From Alphaproteobacteria bacterium (lineage in GTDB: Bacteria; Pseudomonadota; Alphaproteobacteria; MPNO01): a stretch of 64,000 nt of DNA. The notes beneath the pieces are model-generated. The model did not search any database, had not been told where the DNA came from, and worked only from the letters and a program-made list of their open reading frames with translations. The stretch is taken from assembly GCA_963667285.1 (NCBI GenBank), contig OY763326.1:879068-943067 (forward strand), read 5' to 3'. The position numbers and the translations under genes are program-made. Below are positions 12,588 to 41,445 of this stretch, in pieces. Numbering within the stretch: the stretch's first letter is position 1; each line of letters begins with the position of its first letter.

Positions 12588-12645
12588 CGGTCGCCCAGGG
12601 GGCGGGCGGGGCTGGCGCCTCACCCGCCCGACCGCGGCCTGGCGG

Positions 12646-19968: not shown

Positions 19969-20009
19969 CGCCGGTCGGGCGTCGGGGCGGGTCAACCGAA
20001 GGGGCGCCA

Positions 20010-23712: not shown

Positions 23713-23783
23713 AGCGGTACCGCCCGCTGGTATCATCGGTGCGCGGCAGGAGCGTCGAGCGGACGACCCACGGGAGAACGGGA

Positions 23784-24923
23784 ATGGAGGACCCTCGACC
23801 GGCCGGCGTCGAACTCGACAGCCGGTGGCCGCGCTACGATCGGGCCGCTCTCGGATTCCGCCATTACTGGTACCCGGTGCTGGAGTCGCGAAAGCTCCGC
23901 AAGCGTCCCCGCCCGCTGACGCTTCTGGGCGAGAAGATCGTCCTGGTCCGCGATCGCGGCAGGGCCTACGCGCTCGGCGACCGCTGTCCTCACCGCGGCG
24001 TTCCGCTTTCCATGGGACGGCGCGAATTTCCCGGTAGGCTCACCTGCTGCTATCACGGGTGGACCTTCGACCTGGCCAGTGGCGAGCTGGTTGCCGCGCT
24101 GACCGACGGGCCGGATTCGCCGGTCTGCGGCGACCCGCGGCTGAGAGTGCGGACCTACCCGGTCGAGGAACGGGCCGGGCTGATCTGGATATATGTCGGC
24201 GACGAGCCGCGGCCGCCGGTCGACGACGACATTCCGGCGTCCCTGCTGCGAGCCGACGCGGTGGTCGAGCCGATGGTCGATCTGCGCGACGGCAACTGGC
24301 GCTACGCGATGGAGAACGCGGTCGACGACGCCCATGCCAAGTGTCTGCACCGCTACAATCTGTGGTTTTTCTTCACCAGGCTTCCGGGTTACGGGACCGG
24401 AGCGCGCATGGCGACGTCGGAGGACGGCAAATGGCTCCGCCGCGAGAGCACGCCCGAGTTCCGCCCGGCCGACTATCCGGGCGTCGGCACCTGGCCGAGA
24501 CACGATTTCTGGCGCTGGCGCGGCGGTCGCCCGAAGGCCGGCAAGGGCACCGGCAGCAACATCCTCGGGGGCGCGTGCCTGCCCGGGATCTTTTCCGTCG
24601 GCCATGAGAGCTGGGAGGATTTCCAGATCTTCGTGCCGGTCGACGAGGACCGCCACCTGATGCTTCAGGTGTCGGTGCGCCACACCGCGGGGCTGGGGGC
24701 CTGGCTGTGGCGGCTGCGCTACTGGACCTATATCCGGCTCATCCATCACATCATGTTCAACCGCTGGGAGGACGGACGGGTGGTCCCGGCGATGAGCGAG
24801 CCCGAGCATCTGTTCCGGCCCGATATGGCGGTCGTCCACTGGCGGCGATGGTGCCACGAGAACGCCCGGCGCTCGCCCGCAGAGCCGGCCGGGGCTGCAC
24901 CCGCGGAGCGCCAGGCAGGTTGA
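23784..24923 (+). CDS. Rieske [2Fe-2S] non-heme-iron oxygenase, alpha subunit (alpha-only type)
   Basis: Rieske motif CPHRG...CCYHGW. Catalytic-domain His/Asp region DAVVEPMVDLRDGNWRYAMENAVDDAHAKCLH. No beta-subunit or reductase gene adjacent. Confidence 0.8.
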   Translation: MEDPRPAGVELDSRWPRYDRAALGFRHYWYPVLESRKLRKRPRPLTLLGEKIVLVRDRGRAYALGDRCPHRGVPLSMGRREFPGRLTCCYHGWTFDLASGELVAALTDGPDSPVCGDPRLRVRTYPVEERAGLIWIYVGDEPRPPVDDDIPASLLRADAVVEPMVDLRDGNWRYAMENAVDDAHAKCLHRYNLWFFFTRLPGYGTGARMATSEDGKWLRRESTPEFRPADYPGVGTWPRHDFWRWRGGRPKAGKGTGSNILGGACLPGIFSVGHESWEDFQIFVPVDEDRHLMLQVSVRHTAGLGAWLWRLRYWTYIRLIHHIMFNRWEDGRVVPAMSEPEHLFRPDMAVVHWRRWCHENARRSPAEPAGAAPAERQAG

Positions 24924-25780
24924 GAGTCGTGGTAACCGGAGGATCCGGGAAGGCGGGCCGGCCGCTGGTCGAAGAGCTGGCCTCGGACGGCGCCGGAAGA
25001 TCGCGCCATGAGGTGCTGGTCTTCGACAGGGCGCCGATGCCCGAACGGCAGGGGGCGCGCTATCTCGCGGGCGACGTCGAGGATCTCGGGCAGGTCCATG
25101 GCGCGCTGGCCGGTGCCGACGCGGTCATCCATCTCGCCGGCATCCACACCCACGGCATCGCGGCGAACGAGAAGACCTTCCGGGTCAACGCAATGGGCAC
25201 GTTCAACGTGCATGAAGCGGCCTGGCGGCTCGGCATCCGGCGCGTGGTCACGATGAGCAGCGAGGCGGTGCTGGGCTGGGCGCCGGGGTCGTGGGAGAGA
25301 GAGCACGTCCCCGCGTATTTGCCGCTCGACGAGGACCACCCGGTCGGCGCGCAGGACGCCTATGGCCTCTCGAAGGTGGCCTGCGAAGCGATCGCCCGGT
25401 CCTACACCGCCAAGTGCGGCATGGTTACGGTCGTCCTGCGGCCGCCCTGGATCGTCTCGCCGGAGGAGCTGGACGGCCTGCGCGACACTGGCGGCGTGAC
25501 TCCGGCGCGGTTCGGCCTCTTCCACTACATCGACTCCCGCGATCTTGCGGCGGCGTGCCGCGCGGCGATCGAACGGCCCCTGGCGGGGTCCCATACGCTG
25601 TTCGTCGGATCGGAAGAAACCACCGTGGCGGAGCCCCTGTGCTCGCTCTATCCCAGGCTGATGCCGGCGCTCGGCGACAAGGCGGAGTCCCTCACCGGCG
25701 CGCGCGGGCCGGTCTCGACGGAGCGCGCGCGGATGCTCCTCGACTGGACGCCCACGCGCTCCTGGCGGCAGGAGCGCTGA
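24920..25780 (+). CDS. NAD-dependent epimerase/dehydratase (extended SDR) family protein
   Basis: VVVTGGSGKAGRPL Rossmann motif. YGLSK active-site Tyr/Lys. TTG/GTG start overlapping the upstream stop. Confidence 0.75.
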   Translation: MRVVVTGGSGKAGRPLVEELASDGAGRSRHEVLVFDRAPMPERQGARYLAGDVEDLGQVHGALAGADAVIHLAGIHTHGIAANEKTFRVNAMGTFNVHEAAWRLGIRRVVTMSSEAVLGWAPGSWEREHVPAYLPLDEDHPVGAQDAYGLSKVACEAIARSYTAKCGMVTVVLRPPWIVSPEELDGLRDTGGVTPARFGLFHYIDSRDLAAACRAAIERPLAGSHTLFVGSEETTVAEPLCSLYPRLMPALGDKAESLTGARGPVSTERARMLLDWTPTRSWRQER

Positions 25781-25901
25781 TCCGGGGATCGCGCCCGTCC
25801 CTCGCGGAACCTGGTGAGAAATGCGGGCTTGCCGGTCGGACGGGTGTGGACGGGCGGGTCGGGATCGTGCTTGCATTCGATGACGGGAGCGGGAGGTACG
25901 G

Positions 25902-26900
25902 ATGGCCACGTCTCTATTCGTCGCGACGGGGAACGGGGTCTTCCTCGCGGAGCCGAACGGCGCCGGCCGCGAGACCCGGCCTCTGGGGCTGCAAGGCAAG
26001 GGCATGGTGCGCTGGATCCTGGCCGACCCGTCTTGCGCCGGGCGGGTGTGGGCGGCGACGGAGCGCTCGGGCGTCTGGCGGACCGATGACGGCGGTGCGA
26101 CCTGGACGGAGAAGAACGAGGGGCTGGTCTACAAGCACACCCTGTCGCTCGCCCTTCATCCGGCGACCGGCACGCTCTATGCCGGCACGGAGCCCGCCTG
26201 CATCTTCAGATCGAGCGATGCCGGGGACAGCTGGGTCGAGCTCGAGACCCTGCGGCGACTCGGGACGCGCAAGGACTGGACCTTCCCGGGGCCGCCCTAT
26301 GTCGCCCATGTGCGCGGCATCGGGCTGTCGCCATCCGACCCCGAAATCATCTTCGGCGCGGTCGAGGAGGGTTGGCTGGTGCGCTCGCGCGACGGCGGCG
26401 AGAGCTGGGTCAACATCAAGGACGGCACCGAGTTCGACTCGCACACCGTCACCGTGCTTCCGGATGGCGAAACCGTGATCTCGGCGTCGGGCAAGGGCCT
26501 GTACCGGAGCACCGACGGAGGCGAGACATTTGCCGCCGCCTATGCCGGGATCGCACACCCCTATCTGATAAACGTCGCGGTTCATCCCGGCCGGCCCGAC
26601 ATGCTGTTCACCGCCGGCGCGGAGGTGCCGCCGCCGGGCTGGCGTCGGCCGGAAGGCGCCGGGGCGGGGTTCTACCGGAGCGAGGACGGCGGGGAGAGCT
26701 GGTCCCGCCTGACCGGCGGGCTGCCGGAGCGCATCGGGCCGGCGCCGCGCTCGATCGCGATCGACCCCGCGTCGCCCGAGACCGTGTTCGTCGGGCTCAA
26801 CGACGGCGAAATCTGGGCCAGCCGGGACGGTGGGGAGGCGTTCGACCGTATCGTCGCCGGCCTGCCCCCCGTGCTGGGGATCGCACCGGTCCCCGCCTGA
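25902..26900 (+). CDS. BNR/Asp-box repeat protein (paralog of 16989-18131)
   Basis: Asp-boxes TDDGGATW, SSDAGDSW, SRDGGESW, STDGGETF, SEDGGESW, SRDGGEAF. Same domain order as its paralog. Confidence 0.65.
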   Translation: MATSLFVATGNGVFLAEPNGAGRETRPLGLQGKGMVRWILADPSCAGRVWAATERSGVWRTDDGGATWTEKNEGLVYKHTLSLALHPATGTLYAGTEPACIFRSSDAGDSWVELETLRRLGTRKDWTFPGPPYVAHVRGIGLSPSDPEIIFGAVEEGWLVRSRDGGESWVNIKDGTEFDSHTVTVLPDGETVISASGKGLYRSTDGGETFAAAYAGIAHPYLINVAVHPGRPDMLFTAGAEVPPPGWRRPEGAGAGFYRSEDGGESWSRLTGGLPERIGPAPRSIAIDPASPETVFVGLNDGEIWASRDGGEAFDRIVAGLPPVLGIAPVPA

Positions 26901-26907
26901 ACCCGAC

Positions 26908-27861
26908 ATGGGCGGAGCGGAAAGGCGGGACAGCTTCGACGGCATCGCCATCTTCGTCCGCGTGGCGCAAAGCGCCAGCTTCTCGGAAGCGGCGCGCCAT
27001 CTCGGCTTGTCGGCATCCGGTGTCAGCCGGGCGATCGCGCGGCTCGAATCGAGGCTCGGAACCCGGCTGGTCGACCGGACGACGCGGCGCCTGTCGCTGA
27101 CCGCCGAGGGCGGCGCCTATTTCGAGCGGTGCCGGCACATCCTCGCCGAACTCGAAGCCGCCGAGAACGCCCTGGCCGAGGCGCGCGGCGTGCCGCGAGG
27201 ACCTCTGCGGATCCAGGTGCCGCGCGGATTCGGCCGCACGGTGGTCGTGCCGGCGCTCGCCGGTTTCCTTTCGCGCCACCCCGAGGTGACCGTCGACGTT
27301 ACCGTCAACGACGGCGCCATCGATCCGAGCGAAGAAGGGGTGGACGCCTCCTTCATTCTGGGCGAGCCGGCGACCGGCCGCTTTGTCGCCCGCAGGATCT
27401 GCACCATCGGCTATGCCGTCTGTGCCGCGCCCGGCTACCTCGAGGCTCATGGCAGGCCGATGGGCCTCGACGATCTGGCCCGGCACCGATGTCTCAACTA
27501 CCTCCGTCCGCGTTCCGGGCGCCGACGCGACTGGACGCTGTGCAGCCACGGCAAGGAAGTCTCGGTGCCGGTCGCGTCGGTGCTCGACGCCAACGATATC
27601 CAGGCAGTTCACCAGGCGGCCCTGTCGGGTGCCGGGCTCGCCTATCTGATGGATTTCCTGATCGCGGGCGACGTTGCGGCCGGACGGCTGGAAATCGTCC
27701 TGCCGGGCCATGTCCTGCGTGGCGTACCGGTGTTCCTGTGCTATCCGCGGAACCCGCATCGCACGCCGCGCCTGACCGCCTTCGTCGACTATCTCGGCGA
27801 GACCCTGCCCGCCGGCGCGGACTGGTCGATCGACCGGCTGGTCGGCTCGACTATTGACTGA
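26908..27861 (+). CDS. LysR-family transcriptional regulator
   Basis: N-terminal wHTH FDGIAIFVRVAQSASFSEAARHLGLSASGVSRAIARLE. LysR substrate-binding domain. About 317 aa. Confidence 0.85.
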   Translation: MGGAERRDSFDGIAIFVRVAQSASFSEAARHLGLSASGVSRAIARLESRLGTRLVDRTTRRLSLTAEGGAYFERCRHILAELEAAENALAEARGVPRGPLRIQVPRGFGRTVVVPALAGFLSRHPEVTVDVTVNDGAIDPSEEGVDASFILGEPATGRFVARRICTIGYAVCAAPGYLEAHGRPMGLDDLARHRCLNYLRPRSGRRRDWTLCSHGKEVSVPVASVLDANDIQAVHQAALSGAGLAYLMDFLIAGDVAAGRLEIVLPGHVLRGVPVFLCYPRNPHRTPRLTAFVDYLGETLPAGADWSIDRLVGSTID

Positions 27862-27940
27862 GTATCAAAGCAGTTTCTCCCATTTGGACCTTTGAGGCAT
27901 CAATAGCGAGCGCTACCATCGGCCCGCATCGCATTGCCAT

Positions 27941-28759
27941 TTGCGCACGGTGAAACGGATGACCGGCGAATTCGAGCGCGAAACCGTCGACCTGCCCACC
28001 GGGCCTGTGACGTATTTCGCAGCCGGGGCGGGGCACGATGTGGTCTATCTCCACCCCGCCGCCGGGATGCGCATTTCCGACCCGCTCCGTCGCCTGGCCC
28101 GACGATTTCGCGTCTGGGCGCCGGTCGTGCCGGGTTTCGACGACACCTTGGCGCACGAAACGGTCGATACGATGCCGGCGCTCGCCGATCTGCTCGCGGC
28201 GTTCATCGCAGCCGGGCCCGGCCGCGCGGTCGATGTCGTGGGCAGCTCGCTGGGCGGCTGGCTCGGCGCCTGGCTCGCGGTTCGCCACCCGGATCTGGTG
28301 GAACATCTCGTGCTCGCGGCGCCCGCCGGATTCAGACCGGTCGACGCGCCGCCGCTCAGCTTCGATCCCGACATCATGCGCGCCCAGCTCTACGCCCATC
28401 CCGAACGGGTGCCGCCCGACGACAAGCCGCCGGAGATGCGCGAGGCCAATGCCAGGGCGGTCGCCCGATACGGGCTGGGCAACTCCCACGACGCCGGACT
28501 CCAGGCGAAGGTAGCGGCGATCGCCTGCCAGACCCTGATCCTCCACGGTACGCTCGACGTGCGGGTTCCGGCGTCGGGCGTGCAGATGCTCAAGGAGCGA
28601 ATTCCCAATTCGCAGCTGGTCTATGTCTACGACGCCGCCCACAGCCTGGAGCTCGACCAGCCCGGGCGCGTGGGCGCCCTGATCGAGGATTTCCTCGTCA
28701 GGGGCGAGGCCTTCATCGTCAACCAGGCGCTGCCCGAAGCGGTGGAGACCGTTCCATGA
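27941..28759 (+). CDS. Alpha/beta-fold hydrolase
   Basis: GSSLGGW nucleophile elbow. HGTLD and AAHSLE catalytic-triad context. 4-bp overlap with the downstream LLM gene. Confidence 0.75.
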   Translation: MRTVKRMTGEFERETVDLPTGPVTYFAAGAGHDVVYLHPAAGMRISDPLRRLARRFRVWAPVVPGFDDTLAHETVDTMPALADLLAAFIAAGPGRAVDVVGSSLGGWLGAWLAVRHPDLVEHLVLAAPAGFRPVDAPPLSFDPDIMRAQLYAHPERVPPDDKPPEMREANARAVARYGLGNSHDAGLQAKVAAIACQTLILHGTLDVRVPASGVQMLKERIPNSQLVYVYDAAHSLELDQPGRVGALIEDFLVRGEAFIVNQALPEAVETVP

Positions 28760-29907
28760 GATTCTCGCAAACCCACCACATGCCCTATACGGATATCGAC
28801 GAGGCCGGGCTGGGTTGGCCGATCTCGAACAGCCGGTTCGATTCCGGGCGCGCGATCGAAATGTTCCGCGCCTACACCCACGCCAAGGTGTATGCCGAAG
28901 AGTGCGGGTTCGACGCGATCGGCTGCAACGAGCACCACATGAGCCCGTTCGGCATGATGCCGAACCCCAACCTGATCGCCGCCGCGGTGACGGAACGCAC
29001 GTCGAGCGCCGAGATCCAGCTCAGCGGCAACATCGTGCCCCTCACCAACCCGATCCGGATCGCCGAAGAATACGCGATGATCGACGTGATGAGCGGCGGA
29101 CGGCTGATGGCGGGCTTCATGCGCGGCATCCCGCACGAATATGTCGCCTACAACGTCGCGCCGGACGAATCCTGGAGCCGCATGCGCGAAGCCGTGCAGC
29201 TGATCCTCAAGGCCTGGACCGAGCCGGAGCCGTTCGGCTGGGAAGGCGAGCATTACCGCTTCCGCGCCGTCTCGATCTGGCCCAAGCCGGTCCAGCGGCC
29301 GCACCCGCCGATCCTGATGTCGGGTGGCAGCCCGACATCGGCGCGCTTCGCCGCCGAACACCGGGCGATCATGGGCATCCTGCGCGTGCTCAATTTCGAC
29401 CAGGCGCTGCAGCTCATCGACATCTACAGGCAGAAGGCCCGCGAGGACGGGTGGGAGCCCGGCCCCGACCGGTTCATGGTCGGCGTGCCGACGGCGGTCG
29501 CCGAGACCGTCGAGGAGGCGAAGCGGGCGCTGCATGACGGCACCCAGTATTTCTTCGATGTCCTGCAAGGCGGCATAAACCGGGCCCAGCTCCTGGTGCT
29601 CCAGAAGACGCGCTTCAACGCCGACGACACCCTGGTGCGCCCGGTCGACAAGGACCAGCGGATGAAGGCGACGCCGGTCGAGCAGCGCATCGAGAACGGC
29701 CAGGTGCTCTGCGGCACGCCCGACATGGTGGTCGACCAGATCGAGCGCATGCACGCCGCGCTGAATCACGGGCACATGAATCTGATCGTCAAGGTCGGCA
29801 ATATGCCGGACGATTTCGTCCTTCGGAGCATGAAGCTGCTCGGCGACCATGTGTTCCCGGAGGTCAAGCATCTCGGCCGGGCGACCGAAACCGTCGCCGC
29901 CGAGTAG
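28756..29907 (+). CDS. Luciferase-like (LLM-class) flavin-dependent monooxygenase/oxidoreductase
   Basis: 383 aa TIM-barrel LLM pattern (AEECGFDAIGCNEHH..., LSGGRLMAGF). Translationally coupled to the upstream hydrolase. Confidence 0.8.
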   Translation: MRFSQTHHMPYTDIDEAGLGWPISNSRFDSGRAIEMFRAYTHAKVYAEECGFDAIGCNEHHMSPFGMMPNPNLIAAAVTERTSSAEIQLSGNIVPLTNPIRIAEEYAMIDVMSGGRLMAGFMRGIPHEYVAYNVAPDESWSRMREAVQLILKAWTEPEPFGWEGEHYRFRAVSIWPKPVQRPHPPILMSGGSPTSARFAAEHRAIMGILRVLNFDQALQLIDIYRQKAREDGWEPGPDRFMVGVPTAVAETVEEAKRALHDGTQYFFDVLQGGINRAQLLVLQKTRFNADDTLVRPVDKDQRMKATPVEQRIENGQVLCGTPDMVVDQIERMHAALNHGHMNLIVKVGNMPDDFVLRSMKLLGDHVFPEVKHLGRATETVAAE

Positions 29908-29936
29908 CCCGGCCCGGGGCACGCAGGAGCGAATCG

Positions 29937-30293
29937 ATGCCGAGCGTCACCGTCGTCAACCGGGGCAACCGGTCTTTCGAGGTCAGGCAGGGCCGCGCGC
30001 TGCTGACCGGCGCGCGCGAAGCCGGGCTGCCCTGGCGCTGGTATTGCGGCGGCGAGGCGCTCTGCGGAACCTGCTGCATGCTGGTGGTCGACGGCGCGCT
30101 CGACGAGCCCAACGAGATCGAGCGCTATTTCATCGAGGGCTGGGGCTACCATCCCGGCTTTCGCCTCGCCTGTCAGGCGCGTGTCGTCGAGCCGGTCGCG
30201 GTAATATCCTGCGCCGAGGAAGGCTATGACAGGGATGCGGTGCTCGCCGCCTACGACGCGGCGGTGGAGCAGAGAAAAGGGGATCGACCATGA
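29937..30293 (+). CDS. [2Fe-2S] ferredoxin
   Basis: 118 aa with a CGGEALCGTCC ... C cysteine cluster typical of 2Fe-2S ferredoxins. Overlaps the next gene by 4 bp. Confidence 0.7.
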   Translation: MPSVTVVNRGNRSFEVRQGRALLTGAREAGLPWRWYCGGEALCGTCCMLVVDGALDEPNEIERYFIEGWGYHPGFRLACQARVVEPVAVISCAEEGYDRDAVLAAYDAAVEQRKGDRP

Positions 30294-30943
30294 CGGAGAC
30301 CGACACCGCATCCGCGCTGACACCCGAATCCTTCGCCCTGATGAAGGACCTGGTCGGCAAGGAAGCGGCGCTGCTGACGATGGACCTGATGAGCGAGGAA
30401 TCGAAGCTCCGCTACCGCAGCTTCTACCCCTGCGGCGACATGCTGATCGGGCTGCGCTATGCCGAGCCGCGACCCGACGGCAAGGGGTTCAAGCCCGGCC
30501 GGTCGCTAAAGATCATGAACGGCAGGATCGTCTCCGAGCCGCGCCGGGACGTCCAGTTCACCCCGCCGCTGGTGCCGCATCATGCCGAGCATGTCTACGG
30601 CTTCTGGCACATCAACGACCAGCAGGAGATGGTCATGAACCTGAAGCTCGGCGACGACCGCCGGCTGACGGTGCTGATCGAGGGCTATCCCGAGCGCGGG
30701 CGGATCGACCGCTTCGCCTGGTTCTGCCTCGAATGCCTGAACCCGCTCTACATGGTCGAGGTGGAGACCGCCAGGGTCGGGCTGGGCGGCTACTACGCCG
30801 TCCAGGAGGACGGGTTCGCGGCGTTCAACGGCGACGAAAAGCTGCGGACATGCGCGTCATGCGGCGCCGTCCACCCGGTCGCCTATTCGATCTTTCCGTG
30901 GAACGATACGCCGGAAGAACGCGCGGCCCGCGAGCTCTGGTAG
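30290..30943 (+). CDS. Cupin protein with C-terminal Cys4 rubredoxin-like ribbon, 3-hydroxyanthranilate-3,4-dioxygenase (HAAO)-like
   Basis: WFCLECLNPLY...(about 35 aa)...RTCASCGAVHPV: two CxxC pairs spaced as in bacterial HAAO (W-Y-C-x2-C...R-C-x2-C-G-x-H). Cupin core upstream. One of three paralogs in the window. Confidence 0.5.
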   Translation: MTETDTASALTPESFALMKDLVGKEAALLTMDLMSEESKLRYRSFYPCGDMLIGLRYAEPRPDGKGFKPGRSLKIMNGRIVSEPRRDVQFTPPLVPHHAEHVYGFWHINDQQEMVMNLKLGDDRRLTVLIEGYPERGRIDRFAWFCLECLNPLYMVEVETARVGLGGYYAVQEDGFAAFNGDEKLRTCASCGAVHPVAYSIFPWNDTPEERAARELW

Positions 30944-30983
30944 GGTCGCCCGGCGGCCCGAGAACAAGGACAGGGAGAAGGAC

Positions 30984-32009
30984 ATGAGACTGCTGAAGAC
31001 CCGGCATCCGGCGGCCGTGCTCATCGCGGCGGGCGCGATTGCCCTCGCCGGCGGGACGCAGACCGCCCAGGCCCAGCTGTCGCTCGCCAAGGTCAAGGTC
31101 GCGATGCCGTTGACCGTCCTGGTCCAGCGCGCGGCGCTCGAAGGCGCGATCGCGTCCGGCGCGTTCAAGCGCGAGGGTCTCGCGGTCGAGGTCATCTCAT
31201 TCCGCTCCTGGACGGAGCCGGTGCAGTCGCTCGCCGCGGACGCGGCGCAGTTCGCGCTCGGCGGCGGAAGCTTCATCCGTGCCTCGCTCGGCGGCAAGGC
31301 GCCGGTGCGCGCCATCGCGCTGGTCTCCAGCCGCTACCCCTACGCCTTCTGGGTCAAGAAATCGAGCGGCATCAAGTCGTTCGAGGACCTCCGGGGCAAG
31401 ACGATCCAGACCGTGCGGGCGGGCGAGACGCTCGACAACGTCTGGCAGCAGATCCTGGCGACCGCCGGCCTCGGGATCACCGACGTCAAGCGGTTCGAAT
31501 CCTTCAACGGCTTCGGCTCGCTGATGAGCGGCAACGCCGATATCGCCAATATCTCCAGCAACTGGATCGGAAAGTCCCGAAAGGCCGGGCTGGTTCTCCT
31601 GCTGGACTACAACGACTGGCGCAAGGAGCAGGGGCTGCCGACGAACGAGGCCCAGAATCTCGGCTGGGGCACGTCGCTGAAGATGCTCAAGCAGCACCCG
31701 GATACCGTGCGCGCCTTCCTCCGCGCGCTCGCCAGGGCGACCGTCCGGCTGCGCGAGGACCGCGACTTCGCCGTCTCGGTGCTCACCGCCAAGCCCTATT
31801 CCCAGACCGAGGAAACGGCGAAGGAGGTGTGGGAGATGCACCGCAACGCGTGGATGCTCCGCCTCGACCCGTCCAAGGGCGACTATTCGTTCGACGCCGC
31901 GATGTCGGAAGTCGCGCTGCGGCGGCCGAAAGGGTCGATCGACGTGCGTCAGGCGAGCGCGCTGGAGCCGATCGCCGAGGTGTTGAAGGAGCTGAAGATC
32001 TCCTTCTGA
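30984..32009 (+). CDS. ABC transporter substrate-binding protein, NitT/TauT (SsuA/NMT1-like) family
   Basis: Signal peptide MRLLKTRHPAAVLIAAGAIALAGGTQTAQA. NMT1/SsuA-type periplasmic-binding fold by composition and length (341 aa). Confidence 0.8.
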   Translation: MRLLKTRHPAAVLIAAGAIALAGGTQTAQAQLSLAKVKVAMPLTVLVQRAALEGAIASGAFKREGLAVEVISFRSWTEPVQSLAADAAQFALGGGSFIRASLGGKAPVRAIALVSSRYPYAFWVKKSSGIKSFEDLRGKTIQTVRAGETLDNVWQQILATAGLGITDVKRFESFNGFGSLMSGNADIANISSNWIGKSRKAGLVLLLDYNDWRKEQGLPTNEAQNLGWGTSLKMLKQHPDTVRAFLRALARATVRLREDRDFAVSVLTAKPYSQTEETAKEVWEMHRNAWMLRLDPSKGDYSFDAAMSEVALRRPKGSIDVRQASALEPIAEVLKELKISF

Positions 32010-32029
32010 CCGGCGGCGGTGCCGGGAGC

Positions 32030-32794
32030 ATGGAGGAGCCGAGCCTCGAGGTGATCGGGGTCACCAAGTCGTTCCCGACCGCACAGGGCCGGCTCCAGGT
32101 GCTCGATGGGATCGACATGACCCAGGCCCGCGGCGAGGTGGTCTCCATCGTCGGCGCGAGCGGATCGGGCAAGACCACATTCCTCAGGCTCGTCGCCGGG
32201 CTCGATACGCCTGACAGCGGCGCGCTCAGGCTCGACGGGCGGGAGATCGACGGACCGACTCCCGAACGGTCGCTGATCTTCCAGCAGTTCGGCCTGATGC
32301 CGTGGCTCAGCGTGCTGGAGAACGTCCTGTTCGGGCTGGCGACGAGCGGCCTCTCGAAGACCGAGCAGCGCGACCGCGCCAACGACGTCATCGGGCGCGT
32401 GGGACTGCAGGGGTTCGAGGACTTCCACCCCAAGGCGCTGTCCGGCGGCATGCAGCAGAGGGTCGGGATCGCGCGGGCGCTCGCGGTCGAACCGCGGCTC
32501 CTGCTGTGCGACGAGCCCTTCGCATCGGTCGACGCGATGACCCGCCAGACCATGCAGACCGACCTTCTCGACATCGTGACCCAGCACAGGGCGACCGTGC
32601 TGCTGGTGACCCACGACATCGAGGAGGCGCTGTTCCTCGGCGACCGGGTGCTGGTGTTCTCGTCGCGCCCGGCTCGGGTGATCGAGGAGATCGACGTGGC
32701 GATCGCCAAGCCGCGCGAGCATTCGGTCAGAATGTCGGCCGCGTTCCAGGAACAAAGGGCGATGCTTTGGGAACTCCTCCAGGCAGCCGCCTAG
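32030..32794 (+). CDS. ABC transporter ATP-binding protein (NitT/TauT family)
   Basis: Walker A GASGSGKTT. Signature LSGGMQQRVGIARAL. Walker B LLLCDEPFASVD. The start coordinate is good to plus or minus 1-2 nt. Confidence 0.85.
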   Translation: MEEPSLEVIGVTKSFPTAQGRLQVLDGIDMTQARGEVVSIVGASGSGKTTFLRLVAGLDTPDSGALRLDGREIDGPTPERSLIFQQFGLMPWLSVLENVLFGLATSGLSKTEQRDRANDVIGRVGLQGFEDFHPKALSGGMQQRVGIARALAVEPRLLLCDEPFASVDAMTRQTMQTDLLDIVTQHRATVLLVTHDIEEALFLGDRVLVFSSRPARVIEEIDVAIAKPREHSVRMSAAFQEQRAMLWELLQAAA

Positions 32795-32814
32795 AGAACG
32801 GCGAACCCGCCCGG

Positions 32815-33570
32815 TTGCGCGCGCTTGCGGCGCGGCCGGGCACGCTCTCGCTGCTCATCCTCCTGGCCATCCTCGCCGGCTGGGAGGCCGGCGGGAGGAC
32901 CGGCGTGCTCGACACGTTTTTCTTCAGCACCCCCGGTGCGATCGCGGTCAAGGCCTGGGCGATGCTGATCGACGGCAACCTCCTGTTCCATAGCCTGCGC
33001 ACGGGCTACGCCTATGTCGCCGGGGTGGTCGCGGCGATCGCGGTGGGGGCGGTGGCGGGGCTCGCCATGGGCTGGTGGCGGCGCTTCGGCGATGTGGTCG
33101 ATCCCTACGTCGTCTTCTTCTCGGCGATGCCGCGCATCGCCCTGTTCCCGGTCATCATCCTGATTTTCGGCATCGGCGACCTGTCGCGGACGATCATCGT
33201 CTTCCTCGGCGTGGTCTTTCCGGTCCTGTTCAACGCCTATATCGGCGCCAAGCAGACGCCGCGGCTCCTGATCGATGTGGGACGGGTTTTCGGCTACTCG
33301 CACAACCGGCTGTTTACCGCCGTGGTCCTGCCGGCGGCGCTGCCCTATCTGATCGCGGGGTTCCGCATCGGGGTGACGCTCGGGATCATCATGATCGTGG
33401 TCGCCGAGTTCCTCGCCGCGTCGGCCGGGCTCGGGCAGCAGATCGCGGTCACCGCGCAGAATTACCAGATCGCCGAGATGTGGGCCTGGGTGCTCTACAC
33501 CTCGTTCTACGCCCTGCTGATCGTCCGCGGCATGGACCGCTTCGAGCGCTGGGCGATGCGCTGGGCCTGA
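32815..33570 (+). CDS. ABC transporter permease (NitT/TauT family)
   Basis: Six-TM BPD-type permease. The start was guessed at a TTG just after the ATPase stop. The upstream part of the track ORF is an artefact. Confidence 0.7.
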   Translation: MRALAARPGTLSLLILLAILAGWEAGGRTGVLDTFFFSTPGAIAVKAWAMLIDGNLLFHSLRTGYAYVAGVVAAIAVGAVAGLAMGWWRRFGDVVDPYVVFFSAMPRIALFPVIILIFGIGDLSRTIIVFLGVVFPVLFNAYIGAKQTPRLLIDVGRVFGYSHNRLFTAVVLPAALPYLIAGFRIGVTLGIIMIVVAEFLAASAGLGQQIAVTAQNYQIAEMWAWVLYTSFYALLIVRGMDRFERWAMRWA

Positions 33571-33581
33571 GGAGGGTCGTC

Positions 33582-34730
33582 ATGAGCGAACAAATCGTCT
33601 CCATCGACGTGCGTCCGGCGGAGTTCGGGGACCGGAGCCCGCGCCAGGGGGTGCAGGATTTGGTGAGACCGCGTATCTACGGCCGGCTCGCCGAGGAAGG
33701 CTGCGGCAAGGACGTCGCCCATCTCGTCCTCCACCCCGCCGTCAACTTCATGCACCACTACCTGATCGAGCCGATGCAGGCGCGCGGGCGGGCGATCCTC
33801 GGGCTCAACACGCGCTACGCGAACAACGACTCGACCCTGCTGGTCGAGCGCGTCATCCAGGATATCGGCGCGGGCGTAAAGTTCCTGCGCGACCGGGGCT
33901 ACCGGCGGATCGTCTATATCGGCAACTCGGGCGGCGGTTCGGTCGGCACGCTCTACCAGGCGCAGGCGGAACGGCTCACGATCGACACCACGCCGGACGG
34001 GCTTGCCATCGACCTCTACCCGGAGGACCTGCCGCCGGTCGACGCGATCGTGCTCGCGTCCTGCCATATCGGACGGGGCCGGCATTTCGGCATGTCGCTC
34101 GATCCTTCGGTGCTCGACGAGCGCGAGCTCACCCGTACCGATCCCGAGCTCGACATGTTCAACCCCGCCAACGGCCCGCCTTACGACCGCGCTTGGCTCG
34201 AGCGCTACGCCGAGGCGCAATCGGCGCGGCACCGGCGGATCACCGGCTGGGTCCTCGGGCGGCTGCGCGAGATCGACGCGATGCCGCAAGAGGCCGGGCT
34301 CGCCGACGAGCCGTTCCTGATCCACCGCACCTACGCCCGGCCGCAGATCCTCGATCCGACGATCGACCCCAACGACAGGCCCGTCGCGTCCTCGATATGG
34401 GGCGGGGCCAGGGCGACCAACTACGCCGCCACGGTTCTCGGGCGGTTCACCACGCTCCGGTCCTATCTCAGCCAGTGGAGCCTGCTCGGCCGCGCGGCGG
34501 ACGGCCCGGCGCGTCTCGCCGAAACCTCGGTGCCGGCGATCAACATCCGGTTCTCCGCCGACGAGGGCACCTATCCGAGCCTGTCGCAGGAATATTCCGA
34601 CGCCGCGGACGGACGCTGCGAGGATTACACCCTCGTCGGCGCGCGGCACTTCCCCTACAAGCAGGAGAACGGCCCGGCGCTGATTTCCGAGCTCGCCGAC
34701 GTGATCGCCGAATGGGGCGACCAGGGCTGA
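33582..34730 (+). CDS. Alpha/beta-hydrolase-fold protein with G-N-S-G-G nucleophile elbow (unknown specificity)
   Basis: IVYIGNSGGGSVGTLYQ (Ser nucleophile) and a C-terminal GARHFPY His. 382 aa. About 60% identical by eye to the minus-strand gene at 35385-36527. Confidence 0.6.
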   Translation: MSEQIVSIDVRPAEFGDRSPRQGVQDLVRPRIYGRLAEEGCGKDVAHLVLHPAVNFMHHYLIEPMQARGRAILGLNTRYANNDSTLLVERVIQDIGAGVKFLRDRGYRRIVYIGNSGGGSVGTLYQAQAERLTIDTTPDGLAIDLYPEDLPPVDAIVLASCHIGRGRHFGMSLDPSVLDERELTRTDPELDMFNPANGPPYDRAWLERYAEAQSARHRRITGWVLGRLREIDAMPQEAGLADEPFLIHRTYARPQILDPTIDPNDRPVASSIWGGARATNYAATVLGRFTTLRSYLSQWSLLGRAADGPARLAETSVPAINIRFSADEGTYPSLSQEYSDAADGRCEDYTLVGARHFPYKQENGPALISELADVIAEWGDQG

Positions 34731-34750
34731 CCTGCGCCGGAGGCGAACCA

Positions 34751-35377
34751 ATGAACATTCTGGAAGACGTGACACTCCCCGGCCGGCAAGGCGGCGCCTG
34801 GATCGTGCGGAAGGGACAGCATGTTCGGGTCATCGACGTCGAAGGCGGCCCGATCGGCGATTTCGTCTGCTTCAACGCCGACGACCTCACCGAGCGGTTC
34901 AGCCAGACGCGCACCCGGACGAACCACGGCAAGTTTCTCCTGTCCGAGGGAGACCATCTCTACTCCCGCGCAAACAACCCGATGCTGACGATCGTGGAGG
35001 ACAGCTACGGCATCCACGACCTGCAATACGGAATGTGCTCGGCCTGGGTCTACGAGAATTTCAGGAACGACGAGTATCGCGGCTTCGCGGCGGACGCGTT
35101 GACACTGGGCGGACCGCTCGGAATGCCGACTTTCGGCTGCTACGAAGTGCTGCAGCGGGCGCTCGCGGACTGGCCCATCGAGCCGCACGACATTCCGGAC
35201 CCGATCAACCTGTTCCAGACCGTCGACTACGATGCGGACAGGGGAACCTTCACCCTTGTCGACGGGCGCAGCAAGCCGGGCGATTACATCGACTTCGTCG
35301 CCCGCATGGACACGCTGTGCGCCCTCAGCGCCTGCCCGTCGATGGGGCGGGCGCTCCGCGTCCAGATCCACGAATAG
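34751..35377 (+). CDS. DUF1989 family protein (urea-carboxylase-associated protein family)
   Basis: 208 aa. Conserved GIHDLQYGMCSAWVYEN and FVARMDTLCALSACP blocks of DUF1989. Intact copy of the remnant at 16507-16900. Confidence 0.7.
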   Translation: MNILEDVTLPGRQGGAWIVRKGQHVRVIDVEGGPIGDFVCFNADDLTERFSQTRTRTNHGKFLLSEGDHLYSRANNPMLTIVEDSYGIHDLQYGMCSAWVYENFRNDEYRGFAADALTLGGPLGMPTFGCYEVLQRALADWPIEPHDIPDPINLFQTVDYDADRGTFTLVDGRSKPGDYIDFVARMDTLCALSACPSMGRALRVQIHE

Positions 35378-35384
35378 GAACGGA

Positions 35385-36527
35385 TCAGGCGGACCACCCG
35401 GCAAGCAAGTCGGCGAGCTCGGCGATCAGCTCGTCCCCGTCCGGCTGGGTGAAGGGGAAGTGCATCGCGCCCTTGAGTAGATAGGTCTCGCAGCGCGATC
35501 CCACGGCCTCGGTGTACCGGCCGGTCTCCGAAGGAAAACAGCCCTCGTCGGCCGAGTACTCGACATTCAGCACCGGCACCGAGGTTTCCGCCAGGCGCGC
35601 CGGGCCATCGGCGACGCTGAGCGGGCTCCACTGGCTGAGATAGGACCGGAGCGTGGTGAAGCGGCCGAACACGCCGGCGGAGTAGTTCACCGCCCGCGCC
35701 TTGCCGAAGATCGTCGCATCGCCCGCCGGCCGGTCGTTGGGATCGATCGAGCGGTCGAGCGTGGCCGGCTTCGCGCAAGTACGGTGGATGACGAAGCCTT
35801 GGTCGTCGGCACGGGGATGGGCCTCCAGCTGACGCAGCCGCGCCAGTACCCACCCGGTGATCCGGTCGTGCCGCGCGGCCTGTGCCGCCTCGTAGCGCGC
35901 GAGCCAGTCGCGATCGTAGGGCGGCCCGTTGTCGGGATCGTACATGTCGAGTGCCGGGTCGGCCGAAAGCGCATCCGCCTCGTCGATCACCGACGGATCG
36001 AGCGCCGAGCGGAACTGCTGGTGGCGCCCCGGATGGGCGCTCAGCAGGACCACCGCGTCCGCCGGTGGGAGGTCTTCGGGTACGATGTCGAAGGGCCGGC
36101 CGTCGGGCGTCGTCTCGATGGTGAGGGTCTCGGCCTGCGCCTGATAGAGCGACATCACCGGACCGCCGCCCGAGTTGCCCACCAGAACGACGCGCCGGTA
36201 ACCGCGCTCCCGCAGCCAGCGTACGCCTCCGCCGACATCCTGGATCAGCCGCTCCATCAGCAGCGCGCTGTCGTTGTGGAGATGGCGGCTGGTGAGGGTG
36301 AGCACGGCGCGGCCGCGCGCGGCCAGCGGCGCCTGGGCGTAGTGGTGCAAGAAGCTCACCGCCGGGTGCATGAAGAGGAACGCGACATTCTTGCCGCAGC
36401 CCGCATCGGCGATCTTGCCGAGGATTCGGGGGCGCACCCGGTCGGCGATCCCCTGCCCGACGGGCGGGGTATTGCTCGGCCGCAGGTCTATCGAGACGAG
36501 CTCGCCGCGCTCGGCGGGGTGGGTCAT
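35385..36527 (-). CDS. Alpha/beta-hydrolase-fold protein with G-N-S-G-G elbow (paralog of 33582-34730)
   Basis: VVLVGNSGGGPVMSLYQ and KGAMHFPF. Collinear similarity to its paralog over the full length. Start ATG overlaps the stop of the upstream HAAO-like gene (ATGA). Confidence 0.6.
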   Translation of the reverse strand: MTHPAERGELVSIDLRPSNTPPVGQGIADRVRPRILGKIADAGCGKNVAFLFMHPAVSFLHHYAQAPLAARGRAVLTLTSRHLHNDSALLMERLIQDVGGGVRWLRERGYRRVVLVGNSGGGPVMSLYQAQAETLTIETTPDGRPFDIVPEDLPPADAVVLLSAHPGRHQQFRSALDPSVIDEADALSADPALDMYDPDNGPPYDRDWLARYEAAQAARHDRITGWVLARLRQLEAHPRADDQGFVIHRTCAKPATLDRSIDPNDRPAGDATIFGKARAVNYSAGVFGRFTTLRSYLSQWSPLSVADGPARLAETSVPVLNVEYSADEGCFPSETGRYTEAVGSRCETYLLKGAMHFPFTQPDGDELIAELADLLAGWSA

Positions 36528-37087
36528 GCGCCCCTGGCCATGTCCTCGCGCAGCTCGGCCGCCACCGCCCCCCATCCATAGGGAGCGAGATCGATCTCGT
36601 CATGCGTCCGGCCGCAGGACGGGCAGGTCCGGCGCGCCGCGTCGGCGTTGAACGCGCGGCAGGCGCGGAGATAGCCCTCCTGCGGGATCTCCTCCGCCGT
36701 GTCCCAGACATCGCGGGCGATCTCCGCGCCGCAGCCCTCGCAATACCAGGCGACCGCCTCGAGGCCGGGGTGCTCGGCCTTGTAGCGAAGCTGGACGCAT
36801 TCGCCGTCGGGGACGATGCGATGCGGCGTGCCGGAGGGCACGTAGACGAAATCGCCCGGAACCACCGGGTGGAAACGGACCGGGCCGTCGGGGAATTCGA
36901 CCCGGCCCTCGCCCGACATGTTGACCAGCACCGTGTCGTGCTCGCAGATCAGGAAGAAGGGCTGGGGCGTGTCGTTGCGGCTGAGGCAGATCTGCGGGTC
37001 CACGCCCGCCGGCAGCATGGGGTACTCGTCGTAAGGGCCGCGCTTCGCGGCCTCGTCGAAGGCGGCGAAGCGCTGCTTGCGTGCCAT
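36524..37087 (-). CDS. HAAO-like cupin dioxygenase with C-terminal Cys4 ribbon
   Basis: VAWYCEGCGAEIARDVWD...ARRTCPSCGRTHDE closely mirrors the bacterial 3-hydroxyanthranilate 3,4-dioxygenase C-terminus (FEWYCDACG...RRCPHCG.VHP). Cupin block PFFLICEHDTV...VPSGTPHRIVP. 187 aa, matching HAAO size. Confidence 0.55.
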   Translation of the reverse strand: MARKQRFAAFDEAAKRGPYDEYPMLPAGVDPQICLSRNDTPQPFFLICEHDTVLVNMSGEGRVEFPDGPVRFHPVVPGDFVYVPSGTPHRIVPDGECVQLRYKAEHPGLEAVAWYCEGCGAEIARDVWDTAEEIPQEGYLRACRAFNADAARRTCPSCGRTHDEIDLAPYGWGAVAAELREDMARGA

Positions 37088-37102
37088 TGCGGGCTCCTCC
37101 GC

Positions 37103-37828
37103 CTAGCCGGCCGCGGCCGCCGTCTCGCTCAGGCTCTGATGCGCCTCGCGGATGATGTCGGTCATGTCGCGGTAGCGGTCCCAGCCCCAGCGCCCGAGCG
37201 GGAACGGCGGGTTGACGTTGCCGCATTTGGGGCAGGTCCGGTTGCGCTCATCGGCGTTGTAGTTGAGCGCCGCCTGAGCGCTGCCATAGATCGTGTGCAG
37301 GTGGCCGACGGGACCGACCTCGTCCTTCTGCTTTCCCCGTCTGGGCGGCGTCGAATCGAATTCTTCCCGGTAGATTTCGGTCGAGCAGGCGGCGCAGGTG
37401 AAGGCAACGGCCTCTCTTTGCGGGACGCCGGTGGACTGGCGCTGGGTGACCGAGACCAGCGAGAAGCTTTCGGGACTGTCCGGTTCGCTCAACAGGTTTC
37501 CGACGCCGTGGCTGCGCGCGCTGGCGCGCACCAGCCCGGCCTTGCCGCGCCCCGTGGTGGCGCCCGAACCGAAGACGATCGCCACCTCGTCGACCGTGTT
37601 CTCATGCTCGAAATAGCCGTAATCGCCGCCCGACTGGCCGTAGAACAGCGCGATGGTGGGCACCATCGCGCCTTCATCCACATAGGGGAACATCGGCGTC
37701 AGCGTGCTGACCAGGGTGCGCGCGTAGTCGTAGACATTGCACTTCAGCGGCTGCTTGTCCGTCGCCGGCGGCGGCATGGAGACCGTCTTTCCCGCCCTGT
37801 CGTTCACATCCCCCTCCTCACCTTCCAT
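37103..37828 (-). CDS. HAAO-like cupin with C-terminal Cys4 ribbon (more divergent paralog)
   Basis: VAFTCAACSTEIYREEFD...RNRTCPKCGNVNPP. Putative metal ligands in FEHENTVDE (H...E spaced by 6, as in HAAO). The start is uncertain; an internal Met lies at about 37777. Confidence 0.45.
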   Translation of the reverse strand: MEGEEGDVNDRAGKTVSMPPPATDKQPLKCNVYDYARTLVSTLTPMFPYVDEGAMVPTIALFYGQSGGDYGYFEHENTVDEVAIVFGSGATTGRGKAGLVRASARSHGVGNLLSEPDSPESFSLVSVTQRQSTGVPQREAVAFTCAACSTEIYREEFDSTPPRRGKQKDEVGPVGHLHTIYGSAQAALNYNADERNRTCPKCGNVNPPFPLGRWGWDRYRDMTDIIREAHQSLSETAAAAG

Positions 37829-37939
37829 GCCGTCAGGCGCGACAGCGAGCCCTCGATTATAGGCGCGGCGCGGCTCGCGCCAAAGCCGGCCGACACCGAC
37901 TGAAGGTCGAGGCCCGGGCGCGCCGGATCAACTTTCGCG

Positions 37940-38704: not shown

Positions 38705-38823
38705 CGCAATCTCCTCTCCCATGCTTTCCGCCGTGGCGGCCCGAATGTCCCGGCCCCACCCGCCGGATACCGCGACGGACGCCGGGCTCCCGCACCGCGC
38801 GGCGGGACACGACGGGGCCGCGT

Positions 38824-39357: not shown

Positions 39358-39401
39358 CGCGTCGCTCCCCGCCCTGTCCGGCCTGCCGTCCCGGCGCGAA
39401 T

Positions 39402-41439: not shown

Positions 41440-41445
41440 CGGCGC

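Follow-up and report, generated by a model that had tools for sequence, protein, structure and literature searches.

A conserved gene cluster pairing a ferredoxin with a rare, undescribed HAAO-fold protein in an alphaproteobacterial genome

Gene content and organization of the locus

The gene cluster described here lies in a 64-kb stretch of DNA from an Alphaproteobacteria bacterium (GenBank assembly GCA_963667285.1, contig OY763326.1, positions 879,068 to 943,067 of the forward strand), hereafter the window, in whose numbering all coordinates are given. The cluster consists of a plus-strand series of genes that includes a LysR-type regulator and a shorter, convergent minus-strand operon (Table 1), and within the plus-strand series a [2Fe-2S] ferredoxin gene is followed by the gene for H217, a member of a rare, undescribed protein family with a ring-cleaving-dioxygenase fold, that of 3-hydroxyanthranilate 3,4-dioxygenase (HAAO). 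The window has a G+C content of ~ 68%, has an exact match in a section of the 337-kb contig ERZ18545484 ptg000855l from a long-read metagenome, and has Defluviicoccus and Rhodospirillaceae metagenome-assembled genomes (MAGs) as its nearest genome relatives, with 93–94% identity at the H217 protein.

Genes were checked by translation, inspection of start codons and ribosome-binding sites, profile searches against Pfam and NCBIfam, and comparison with the public gene calls on contig ptg000855l, with which the coordinates of the ten plus-strand genes from the LysR-type regulator to the DUF1989 protein agree. An earlier note on this DNA, made from the letters alone, had named these ten genes, all of which are present on the plus strand with the family assignments given there. 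The extent that it gave for the cluster (26908–35377) proved too short: the genes are real, but the conserved unit is larger, adding a BNR gene upstream and the convergent operon at 35385–37828. Also overlooked had been the fixed pairing of ferredoxin and H217 and, beyond position 35377, two HAAO-like paralogues and a second hydrolase with a GNSGG motif. Translational coupling by 4-bp overlaps, claimed for four consecutive genes, is seen between the alpha/beta hydrolase and the luciferase-like monooxygenase (LLM) and between the ferredoxin and H217 (ATGA); the third junction, from LLM to ferredoxin, is a gap of 29 bp. For the alpha/beta hydrolase ABH266, the ATG at 27959 is a more likely start than the TTG at 27941, and the public gene call also uses 27959. 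Homologous loci compared with the window are labeled with L-numbers (L003, L010, and so on).

Table 1. Genes and candidate regulatory sites of the cluster, with window coordinates
Feature	Coordinates	Strand	Evidence
BNR/Asp-box beta-propeller protein, 332 aa, without signal peptide	25902–26900	+	Pfam Sortilin-Vps10/BNR; NCBIfam F510_1955-like 106 bits, below cut-off
LysR-type transcriptional regulator, 317 aa	26908–27861	+	Pfam HTH_1 and LysR_substrate
Candidate LysR box TTGA-N7-TCAA (T-N11-A type), overlapping the LysR stop codon	27854–27868	+	Alignment of LysR–hydrolase intergenic regions from seven loci
Conserved intergenic block GCATCAATAGCGAGCGCTACCATCG, candidate promoter/operator of the plus operon	27897–27921	+	Kept in the window, L010, L011, and L006, partly in L013–L015
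Alpha/beta hydrolase ABH266, 266 aa, GSSLGG nucleophile motif, PcaD/esterase-like	27959–28759	+	Pfam Abhydrolase_1/6
LLM, 383 aa	28756–29907	+	Pfam Bac_luciferase, E 7.5e-50
[2Fe-2S] ferredoxin, 118 aa, Cys37-X5-Cys43-X2-Cys46-X32-Cys79	29937–30293	+	Pfam Fer2
H217, HAAO-fold protein, 217 aa, undescribed family	30290–30943	+	Pfam: no match
Periplasmic NMT1/THI5-type substrate-binding protein, 341 aa, signal peptide	30984–32009	+	Pfam NMT1
NitT/TauT-family ABC ATPase, 254 aa	32030–32794	+	Pfam ABC_tran
NitT/TauT-family ABC permease, 251 aa, TTG start	32815–33570	+	Pfam BPD_transp_1; public gene call has the same start
GNSGG alpha/beta hydrolase 1, 382 aa, predicted triad Ser116/Asp327/His356	33582–34730	+	Pfam: no match
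DUF1989 protein, 208 aa	34751–35377	+	Pfam DUF1989, E 2e-46
GNSGG alpha/beta hydrolase 2, 380 aa, last gene of the convergent operon	35385–36527	-	BLASTP to hydrolase 1, E 1e-164
C187, cupin with HAAO-type Cys4 C-terminus	36524–37087	-	Cupin_2, 23 bits
H241, HAAO-C-terminus-like protein	37103–37828	-	BLASTP to H217 across the Cys4 region
Sigma-70-like promoter match TTGGCG-16-TATAAT, upstream of H241	37856–37883	-	Consensus match only

The BNR gene ends 8 bp before the LysR start, the remaining gaps of the plus operon measure 11–40 bp and contain Shine-Dalgarno-like sequences, and a terminator scan returned no terminator-like sites outside coding sequence, the consensus matches being intragenic. 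Seven bases separate the DUF1989 stop codon from the end of the convergent operon, which runs H241, then C187, then GNSGG hydrolase 2, with a 4-bp overlap between the last two genes. Because the convergent GNSGG paralogues are 60% identical (BLASTP), the DUF1989 gene is flanked by long inverted repeats (34138–34568 and 35541–35962, 77–79% complementary), and it looks as if it had been inserted between the copies of an inverted gene duplication. The best NCBIfam match of the LysR-type regulator is YafC-like and below cut-off, and the protein is not CysB/Cbl-like. The conserved dyad and candidate promoter block in the spacer between the LysR and ABH266 genes would be consistent with LysR control of the plus operon, and the match upstream of H241 is the sole promoter-like site in 25500–39500. 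No Rfam family reached its gathering score in the window, hence neither a guanidine riboswitch nor any other RNA control was found there.

Conservation of the cluster

The cluster is more than a chance assembly of genes, its order recurring in numerous MAGs and metagenome contigs that are independent of one another. The order on two complete MAG chromosomes is BNR, LysR, ABH, LLM, ferredoxin, H217, substrate-binding protein, ATPase, permease, and GNSGG hydrolase, followed by a convergent GNSGG-like gene, C187, and H241, and the same gene order is found in L010, L011, and L013–L015, with protein identities of 57–95%. The BNR gene is kept upstream of LysR in L003, L005, L006, L010, and L013–L015, and the C187/H241 pair in L003, L005, L010–L016, and L038; in one 6.9-Mb genome, the cluster is split into two halves 8 kb apart. 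The LLM is the most conserved protein of the cluster (87–95% identity in close loci). A reduced unit, reading ABH, ferredoxin, H217, substrate-binding protein, ATPase, permease, LLM, and ABH, occurs on contigs of Burkholderiales, Beijerinckiaceae, and others, and elsewhere the ferredoxin and H217 genes alone remain, in one case beside a LigXa-type Rieske oxygenase. On this comparison, the ferredoxin, H217, and an NMT1-type protein make up the evolutionarily fixed core; the LLM/ABH pair is a frequent companion of this core and is retained in distant loci.

At L054 (13334–16685) on chromosome OZ257155.1, the ferredoxin, H217, and importer genes precede those of a LigXa-type Rieske oxygenase, an NMT1-like cytoplasmic protein that presumably resembles the 4,5-dihydroxyphthalate decarboxylases, and a PdxA-family dehydrogenase. 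By analogy, these neighbors may hint at a phthalate-type substrate.

The DUF1989 gene, which the earlier note had treated as an integral partner, is a late, lineage-specific accessory. It is present in the window, L010, and L011 only and is lacking in the syntenic L003/L014, L005/L015, and L013. A metagenome scan recovered 80 loci of DUF1989 orthologues (41–79% identity), none of which has GNSGG hydrolase, LLM, H217, ferredoxin, or NMT1 genes of the cluster type, and a co-occurrence of DUF1989, GNSGG hydrolase, and LLM, which the earlier note had suggested looking for in other genomes, was thus not seen among them. Genes that recur next to these orthologues are those of Liv-type ATP-binding cassette (ABC) transporters, of molybdenum hydroxylases, and of an LLM unrelated to that of the cluster. 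Synteny and these 80 loci thus led us to reject a core role for DUF1989. The protein scores 108 and 82 bits against the UAAP2 and UAAP1 models (cut-offs 285 and 206) and also matches the model for the N-terminal domain of trimethylamine N-oxide (TMAO) demethylase. That urea carboxylase is absent, as had been noted, is borne out within 10 kb on either side of the cluster and among the scanned open reading frames (ORFs) of the window, and neither a carboxylase nor an allophanate hydrolase is among the recurrent gene families near the 80 orthologue loci.

H217 and its family

At the sequence level, H217 gives a signal in residues 126–199, which weakly match the C-terminus of HAAO and nothing else. 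The NCBIfam HAAO models PRK13264 and TIGR03037 give 36.9 bits (cut-off 220) and 22.2 bits (cut-off 146), and Pfam PF06052 does not match. The earlier description of H217 as an HAAO-like cupin is therefore accurate at the level of the fold and for the C-terminal ~ 75 residues, and it does not extend to the rest of the protein. HAAO, in whose bacterial forms a cupin barrel is followed by a C-terminal rubredoxin-like Cys4 site, is the sole strong structural neighbor of H217, and H217 has both features: the CxxC...CxxC sites are homologous (hhalign 98.9%; C146, C149, C188, and C191 in H217), the four cysteines are invariant in the family alignments, and the last barrel strand, likewise homologous, carries E131, the equivalent of HAAO E110, which is kept in the core family.

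The metal ligands of HAAO are a different matter. Its motif-1 residues H51 and E57 have no counterpart in H217, where the region aligns to LRY..RSFYPC, without His or Glu; hhalign leaves the motif-1 half unaligned, and H95 alone has a plausible counterpart, H97. This residue opens a signature, P-H97-x3-H101-xxG[FY]W-H107-xN-D110-xx-E113 (GFW in the window), that lies on a ~ 20-residue insert of the family's own and whose residues are each 73–87% conserved over 63 family members (84% for H97). Because the Cys4 site and the barrel strand are shared and the motif-1 ligands are lacking, we place H217 outside HAAO yet as a descendant of the same fold. The possibility that H217 is a bona fide HAAO was rejected in view of the profile scores and the ligand alignment.

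The family is small. A word-indexed search returned 86 homologue clusters, all labeled "hypothetical." In an exhaustive profile search of 1.84 billion representatives, 203 proteins reached E <= 1e-3, of which 103 also reached E <= 1e-10, and the list tailed off into true HAAOs. The family pattern was found at 44 loci in 185,579 species genomes, essentially all of them titled as MAGs or uncultured isolates, and tblastn against plasmids of cultured bacteria gave only true HAAO genes and one unannotated Ensifer stretch without an intact H217-like ORF. The family occurs almost solely in uncultured bacteria, from soil, peat, freshwater, and possibly hosts.

Ferredoxins and other partners of the H217 family

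Wherever a locus reaches far enough upstream, the H217 orthologue is, with few exceptions, immediately preceded by a ferredoxin gene. We extended this observation to the whole family with a tblastn census of the 44 genome loci, which hold 98 H217-family genes, counting partners within 1.5 kb of a family gene. Small ferredoxins were found in 33 of the 44 loci and were of two types, plant-type (22) and Rieske-type (13); NMT1-like genes were found in 35 and LLM genes in 17. M24 hydrolase genes are present at 16 loci. Tandem family genes occur at 21 loci, typically as a "large" form of ~ 214 aa and a "small" form of ~ 192 aa, and one chromosome has three H217-family modules within 20 kb. Multi-copy arrays of such large and small forms lie at L040/L053 (OZ257155.1), L043, L049, and L033–L036 in Stellaceae-like Alphaproteobacteria and Eremiobacterota MAGs. 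Every pair there comes with a separate Rieske ferredoxin and NMT1-type protein, in many cases also with M24 hydrolases and an LLM.

The association extends to gene fusions. In P0210 (RefSeq WP_429835249.1), from the isolate Brevibacillus sp. NRS-1366, an N-terminal Rieske domain precedes the H217-like domain, and in P0279 the H217-like domain is followed by a C-terminal Rieske domain. The gene preceding P0210 (L141 9015–10984, JBITPN010000025.1) encodes a 314-aa cytoplasmic protein with a weak match to the Phosphonate-bd/NMT1 clan. Interchangeable ferredoxin types together with fusions form the pattern expected of an obligatory electron donor.

The monooxygenase, hydrolases, and importer

The earlier note had left the LLM to be sub-classified by profiles and had considered an authentic ssuD/ssuABC sulfonate system as the case against its reading. 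The profiles separate the LLM clearly from SsuD (TIGR03565, 29 bits against a cut-off of 518; PRK00719, 29.5 against 510) and SfnG (51 against 383), and an ssu/tau/sfn assignment was rejected given the NCBIfam scores and the sulfur content, as the LLM, ferredoxin, and H217 have a Cys+Met content of 5.7–6.0% and are not sulfur-sparing. The best NCBIfam matches of the LLM are families of the Atu2307, MupA, and Rv2161c types (99–104 bits, all below cut-offs). Because F420-type (TIGR03619, 99 bits, cut-off 167) and FMN-type models (TIGR03858, 104; TIGR04020, 101) score alike, the profiles leave its cofactor as flavin or deazaflavin. Among solved structures, it comes closest to 7BIP (its best PDB match), an LLM with a link to the biosynthesis of rishirilide.

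ABH266, which scores 75 bits with PcaDC and 59 with PcaD (below cut-off) and 34 and 17 with the meta-cleavage-product hydrolases HsaD and BphD, resembles PcaD-type enol-lactonases and esterases more closely than meta-cleavage-product hydrolases, and PDB searches with it gave remote, uninformative matches only. The two GNSGG proteins have the alpha/beta hydrolase fold with the nucleophile elbow and the Ser-Asp-His triad intact in canonical order, and their structural neighbors are esterase-like (feruloyl-esterase-like); a sequence-only PDB search with a GNSGG hydrolase gave nothing significant, and a profile search matched the nucleophile-elbow region alone.

By its profile scores, the importer is of the NitT/TauT type at family level and not an Ssu or Tau orthologue. 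The binding protein scores 60 bits with SsuA_fam (cut-off 163), and its sole PDB match, 3QSL, is remote and offers no ligand clue; the ATPase is TauB/SaoA/NtrCD-like below equivalog cut-offs (TauB 227 bits; SsuB 171 against 395), and the permease is SaoP/SsuC/TauC-like below cut-offs (SsuC 86 against 347).

C187 and H241

C187 has the canonical motif-2 His and an HAAO-type Cys4 C-terminus and lacks the insert of H217, to which it is related; it scores 33 and 30 bits with the NCBIfam HAAO models, below their cut-offs, and matches HAAO in the PDB at E 0.002. H241 keeps the Cys4 site and lacks the His-rich region altogether, and for this reason we consider it a probably non-catalytic partner of C187, so that the two may form a pair of structural and catalytic subunits. 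As both share the CxxC...CxxC C-terminus with H217, the window encodes three HAAO-like proteins.

Genomic surroundings

The cluster lies in a catabolic island, as the window also encodes Rieske oxygenases, a LigB dioxygenase, UbiD, amidohydrolases, a hydantoinase, and four tripartite ATP-independent periplasmic (TRAP) transport systems. The left edge of the island is marked by a mobile element (34–1682, plus strand), an IS21-type IstB ATPase gene (843–1682) after a 270-aa ORF without Pfam match that may be the end of IstA. In 2913–15403, TRAP DctP/Q/M sets (2913–6103 and 10710–13761) are interleaved with genes for a MauG-like/di-haem cytochrome c peroxidase (6431–8044), an Amidohydro_2 protein (8058–9089), a UbiD-family decarboxylase (9197–10642), and an Amidohydro_1 protein (13850–15403). 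A second BNR/Sortilin-type propeller paralogue (16902–18131, plus strand) adjoins the gene for a 463-aa protein without Pfam match (18210–19604, minus strand). Directly upstream of the BNR gene of the cluster (19797–25780, plus strand) lie hydantoinase/oxoprolinase A and B genes, a homotrimeric-type Rieske oxygenase gene (Aromatic_hydrox), and an NAD-dependent epimerase/dehydratase gene, which are not conserved with the cluster in L003 or L005.

On the other side, upstream of the H241 operon in the minus sense (38824–42756), the minus strand encodes a short-chain dehydrogenase/reductase (SDR), a SnoaL_4 protein, and a LigXa-type Rieske oxygenase, together with the alpha (BenA/HcaE-like, 211 and 199 bits) and beta subunits of a two-subunit ring-hydroxylating dioxygenase; no dedicated reductase was seen. 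Farther along the minus strand are a LigB-type extradiol dioxygenase (46570–47637), the small (47785–49221) and large (49214–53800) subunits of glutamate synthase, and, at 53987–60456, a class-IV aminotransferase, an ornithine cyclodeaminase/mu-crystallin, TRAP DctM/DctQ/DctP, and a creatinase-N/M24 hydrolase, of which the M24, ornithine cyclodeaminase, and TRAP genes recall clusters for the use of ectoine/hydroxyectoine-type cyclic amino-acid derivatives. A divergent Amidohydro_1 gene follows (60483–61772), and a second LLM gene (63047–64000, minus strand) continues past the right edge of the window.

Proposed mechanism and alternative explanations

We propose that the cluster is a LysR-controlled locus of two convergent operons for the uptake and oxidative breakdown of an organic compound, a reading to which we give roughly even chances. 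The NitT/TauT-type ABC importer with its NMT1-fold binding protein would take the compound in. Electrons would then pass from the co-translated [2Fe-2S] ferredoxin to the rubredoxin-like Cys4 site of H217 and on to a His/Asp/Glu metal site, H217 being most likely an oxygenase that works like the terminal component of a Rieske oxygenase. The LLM would insert oxygen, after which ABH266 would hydrolyze an ester, lactone, or amide, and the two GNSGG hydrolases and the H241/C187 pair would carry out further steps, with the GNSGG enzymes removing ester or amide substituents. The gene content and synteny, the folds, the size of the family, and its ferredoxin neighbors and fusions are observations; we infer the direction of electron flow, the oxygenase chemistry, and this order of steps. 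For the substrate class, our guess is an aromatic or heterocyclic ester, lactone, or amide, because of the esterase-like folds and of the aromatic- and nitrogen-compound catabolic genes that surround the cluster.

More tentatively, and with some doubt, we consider that H217 and its relatives could have made the HAAO scaffold into a new class of non-heme-metal oxygenases that depend on a ferredoxin. The role of the rubredoxin-like FeCys4 site in HAAO itself is debated; in such a class, it would have turned into the site of electron entry, and the catalytic metal would have moved to the His/Asp/Glu motif on the inserted hairpin. The enzymes would be single subunits or heteromers of large and small subunits, each with its own NMT1-fold binding protein, and the multi-copy arrays of uncultured Stellaceae, Eremiobacterota, and related soil lineages would stem from diversification of the family.

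Several observations weigh against this picture of uptake and ferredoxin-driven oxidation. None of the analyses identified a substrate. Confidence in the N-terminal half of the H217 model is modest (predicted local distance difference test, pLDDT, 58–72), and the proposed His/Asp/Glu metal ligands are taken from sequence conservation, although the superfamily as a whole has no invariant His, Asp, or Glu. The fusion P0279 is a single metagenomic sequence, and P0317, a candidate fusion of H217 with NMT1, was dismissed as a probable frameshift artifact. In L138–L140, a LigXa-type Rieske oxygenase gene comes next after the ferredoxin–H217 pair, so the ferredoxin could serve that enzyme instead. 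Neither a ferredoxin reductase nor a flavin reductase was found, be it in the cluster or elsewhere in the window where it was scanned, and the LLMs of distant loci are 36–40% identical to that of the window and may not be orthologues.

Two other explanations assign different parts to the ferredoxin. By analogy with XylT and XylE, H217 might be an electron-independent, extradiol-type ring-cleavage dioxygenase related to HAAO, whose active-site iron the ferredoxin serves only to re-reduce once it is oxidized, with ABH266 hydrolyzing the ring-fission product. In the xylT-xylE gene order, the ferredoxin gene precedes that of the ring-cleavage dioxygenase, as the gene for the plant-type-fold ferredoxin directly precedes and is coupled to that of H217; a hydrolase gene lies in the same operon, and both the structural kinship with HAAO and the retention of E131 agree with this view. 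The missing counterparts of HAAO H51 and E57 do not, nor does ABH266, with its likeness to PcaD and esterases instead of meta-cleavage-product hydrolases. The ferredoxin spacing is C-X5-C-X2-C, not the C-X4-C-X2-C of XylT, and the Rieske-type partners of paralogous systems, sometimes fused, fit an obligatory donor better than an occasional repair protein, so we hold this explanation to be unlikely. It is quite improbable, in our judgment, that the ferredoxin and H217 merely replace an NAD(P)H:flavin reductase in supplying the LLM, H217 having no substrate of its own. Such a relay would account for the adjacency of the LLM and ferredoxin genes in the window, the lack of a flavin reductase gene in the cluster, and the 17 loci of the census that have an LLM. 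However, ferredoxin–H217 pairs occur without a nearby LLM (e.g., L019, L027–L031, and L138–L140), transporter genes part the LLM from the pair in L135–L137, and the NMT1-like protein is the more constant partner; we know of no flavin reductase with a cupin or HAAO fold.

The remaining explanations would file the cluster under known scavenging systems. The DUF1989 protein could be the key C–N-cleaving enzyme of a pathway for a small nitrogen compound of the guanidine, urea, or amidine type, since guanidine operons combine DUF1989 proteins with NitT/TauT importers, the protein matches UAAP2, UAAP1, and TMAO-demethylase models, and genes of the hydantoinase A/B, creatinase-like M24, and amidohydrolase types occur elsewhere in the window. 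We regard this as highly improbable given the patchy presence of the gene in syntenic clusters, the company kept by its orthologues, and the missing carboxylase, allophanate hydrolase, and guanidine riboswitch. Sulfur scavenging of the ssu, tau, or sfn kind, in which the LLM would desulfonate an imported organosulfur compound, is largely refuted and retains next to no credence with us. The ssu, sfn, and msu systems use LLMs as their oxygenases, and the NitT/TauT importer, with its TauB-like ATPase, SsuC-like permease, and SsuA_fam scores, invites the comparison, but all ssu/tau/sfn models score far below cut-off, the regulator is not CysB/Cbl-like, no SsuE-type reductase lies in the cluster, the Cys- and Met-rich LLM, ferredoxin, and H217 are the opposite of sulfur-starvation proteins, and the conserved hydrolases and HAAO-like proteins have no role in ssu.

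Implications

The earlier statement that the gene combination matches no pathway that can be named is upheld, as it fits none in the profile libraries or the searchable literature; searches on the combination, on DUF1989, and on cupin/rubredoxin/ferredoxin oxygenases found nothing relevant. The ferredoxin/H217 pair takes over the emphasis that DUF1989 and the ssu analogy had received, and for annotation, neither "ssu-type sulfonate system" nor "urea/guanidine system" is an apt label for the cluster. If proteins of the H217 type are oxygenases, they would be a new architecture among the few electron-dependent non-heme iron oxygenases and would give a concrete function to the rubredoxin-like site of bacterial HAAOs. 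In its arrays with binding proteins, LLMs, M24 hydrolases, and esterases, the family may mark catabolic pathways for compounds that are beyond the reach of cultured model organisms, and the Brevibacillus fusion, from a cultured isolate, offers an experimental entry point.

Comparison with known systems

Among known proteins, HAAO/NbaC (PF06052) shares with H217 the last barrel strand and the Cys4 site. H217 differs by the ~ 20-residue insert that bears H101, H107, N109, D110, and E113, by three extra N-terminal helices, and by its ferredoxin neighbor or fusion, and whereas the bacterial HAAO has a 2-His-1-Glu iron site (H51, E57, and H95), H217 keeps a counterpart of H95 only. The kynurenine and 2-nitrobenzoate pathway partners of HAAO, ACMSD and 2-aminomuconic semialdehyde (AMS) dehydrogenase, are absent from the conserved cluster in every locus. 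The proposed logic of electron flow, from ferredoxin through an Fe-S site to a mononuclear metal, would be the same as in Rieske non-heme iron oxygenases such as LigXa/LigXc/LigXd and biphenyl dioxygenase with BphF, which likewise have a catabolic setting and small [2Fe-2S] ferredoxins, Rieske-type or plant-type, that are interchangeable between systems. In contrast to the Rieske and START-like domains of those enzymes, H217 is an HAAO-type cupin in which electrons are predicted to enter at an FeCys4 site, its oxygenase activity is a prediction, and there is no linked reductase gene.

XylT-XylE resembles the locus in having a small ferredoxin gene immediately upstream of, and co-translated with, a dioxygenase-like gene, and differs in the dioxygenase fold, in the Cys spacing (here C-X5-C-X2-C-X32-C), and in the Rieske-type partners and fusions found among H217 paralogues. 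With SsuEADCB and TauABCD, the cluster has in common an LLM and a NitT/TauT importer with an NMT1-fold binding protein, but it departs from them in its profile scores, in the absence of an SsuE-like gene, in proteins that are not sulfur-poor, and in its additional hydrolases, ferredoxin, and HAAO-like proteins. The guanidine and urea carboxylase operons (UAAP1/UAAP2, CgdAB, carboxyguanidine deiminase) also combine DUF1989 with a NitT/TauT importer, whereas here there is one DUF1989 gene instead of a pair, and no carboxylase, allophanate hydrolase, or riboswitch accompanies it. The translational coupling of the LLM to a PcaD/esterase-like hydrolase, a pair kept in distant loci, recalls RutA/RutD or an LLM-type Baeyer-Villiger monooxygenase with a lactone hydrolase; the cluster differs in lacking RutB, RutC, and RutF and in the score of ABH266 with RutD (37 bits, cut-off 238), and the corresponding chemistry, oxygen insertion by the LLM followed by hydrolysis, is a prediction here.

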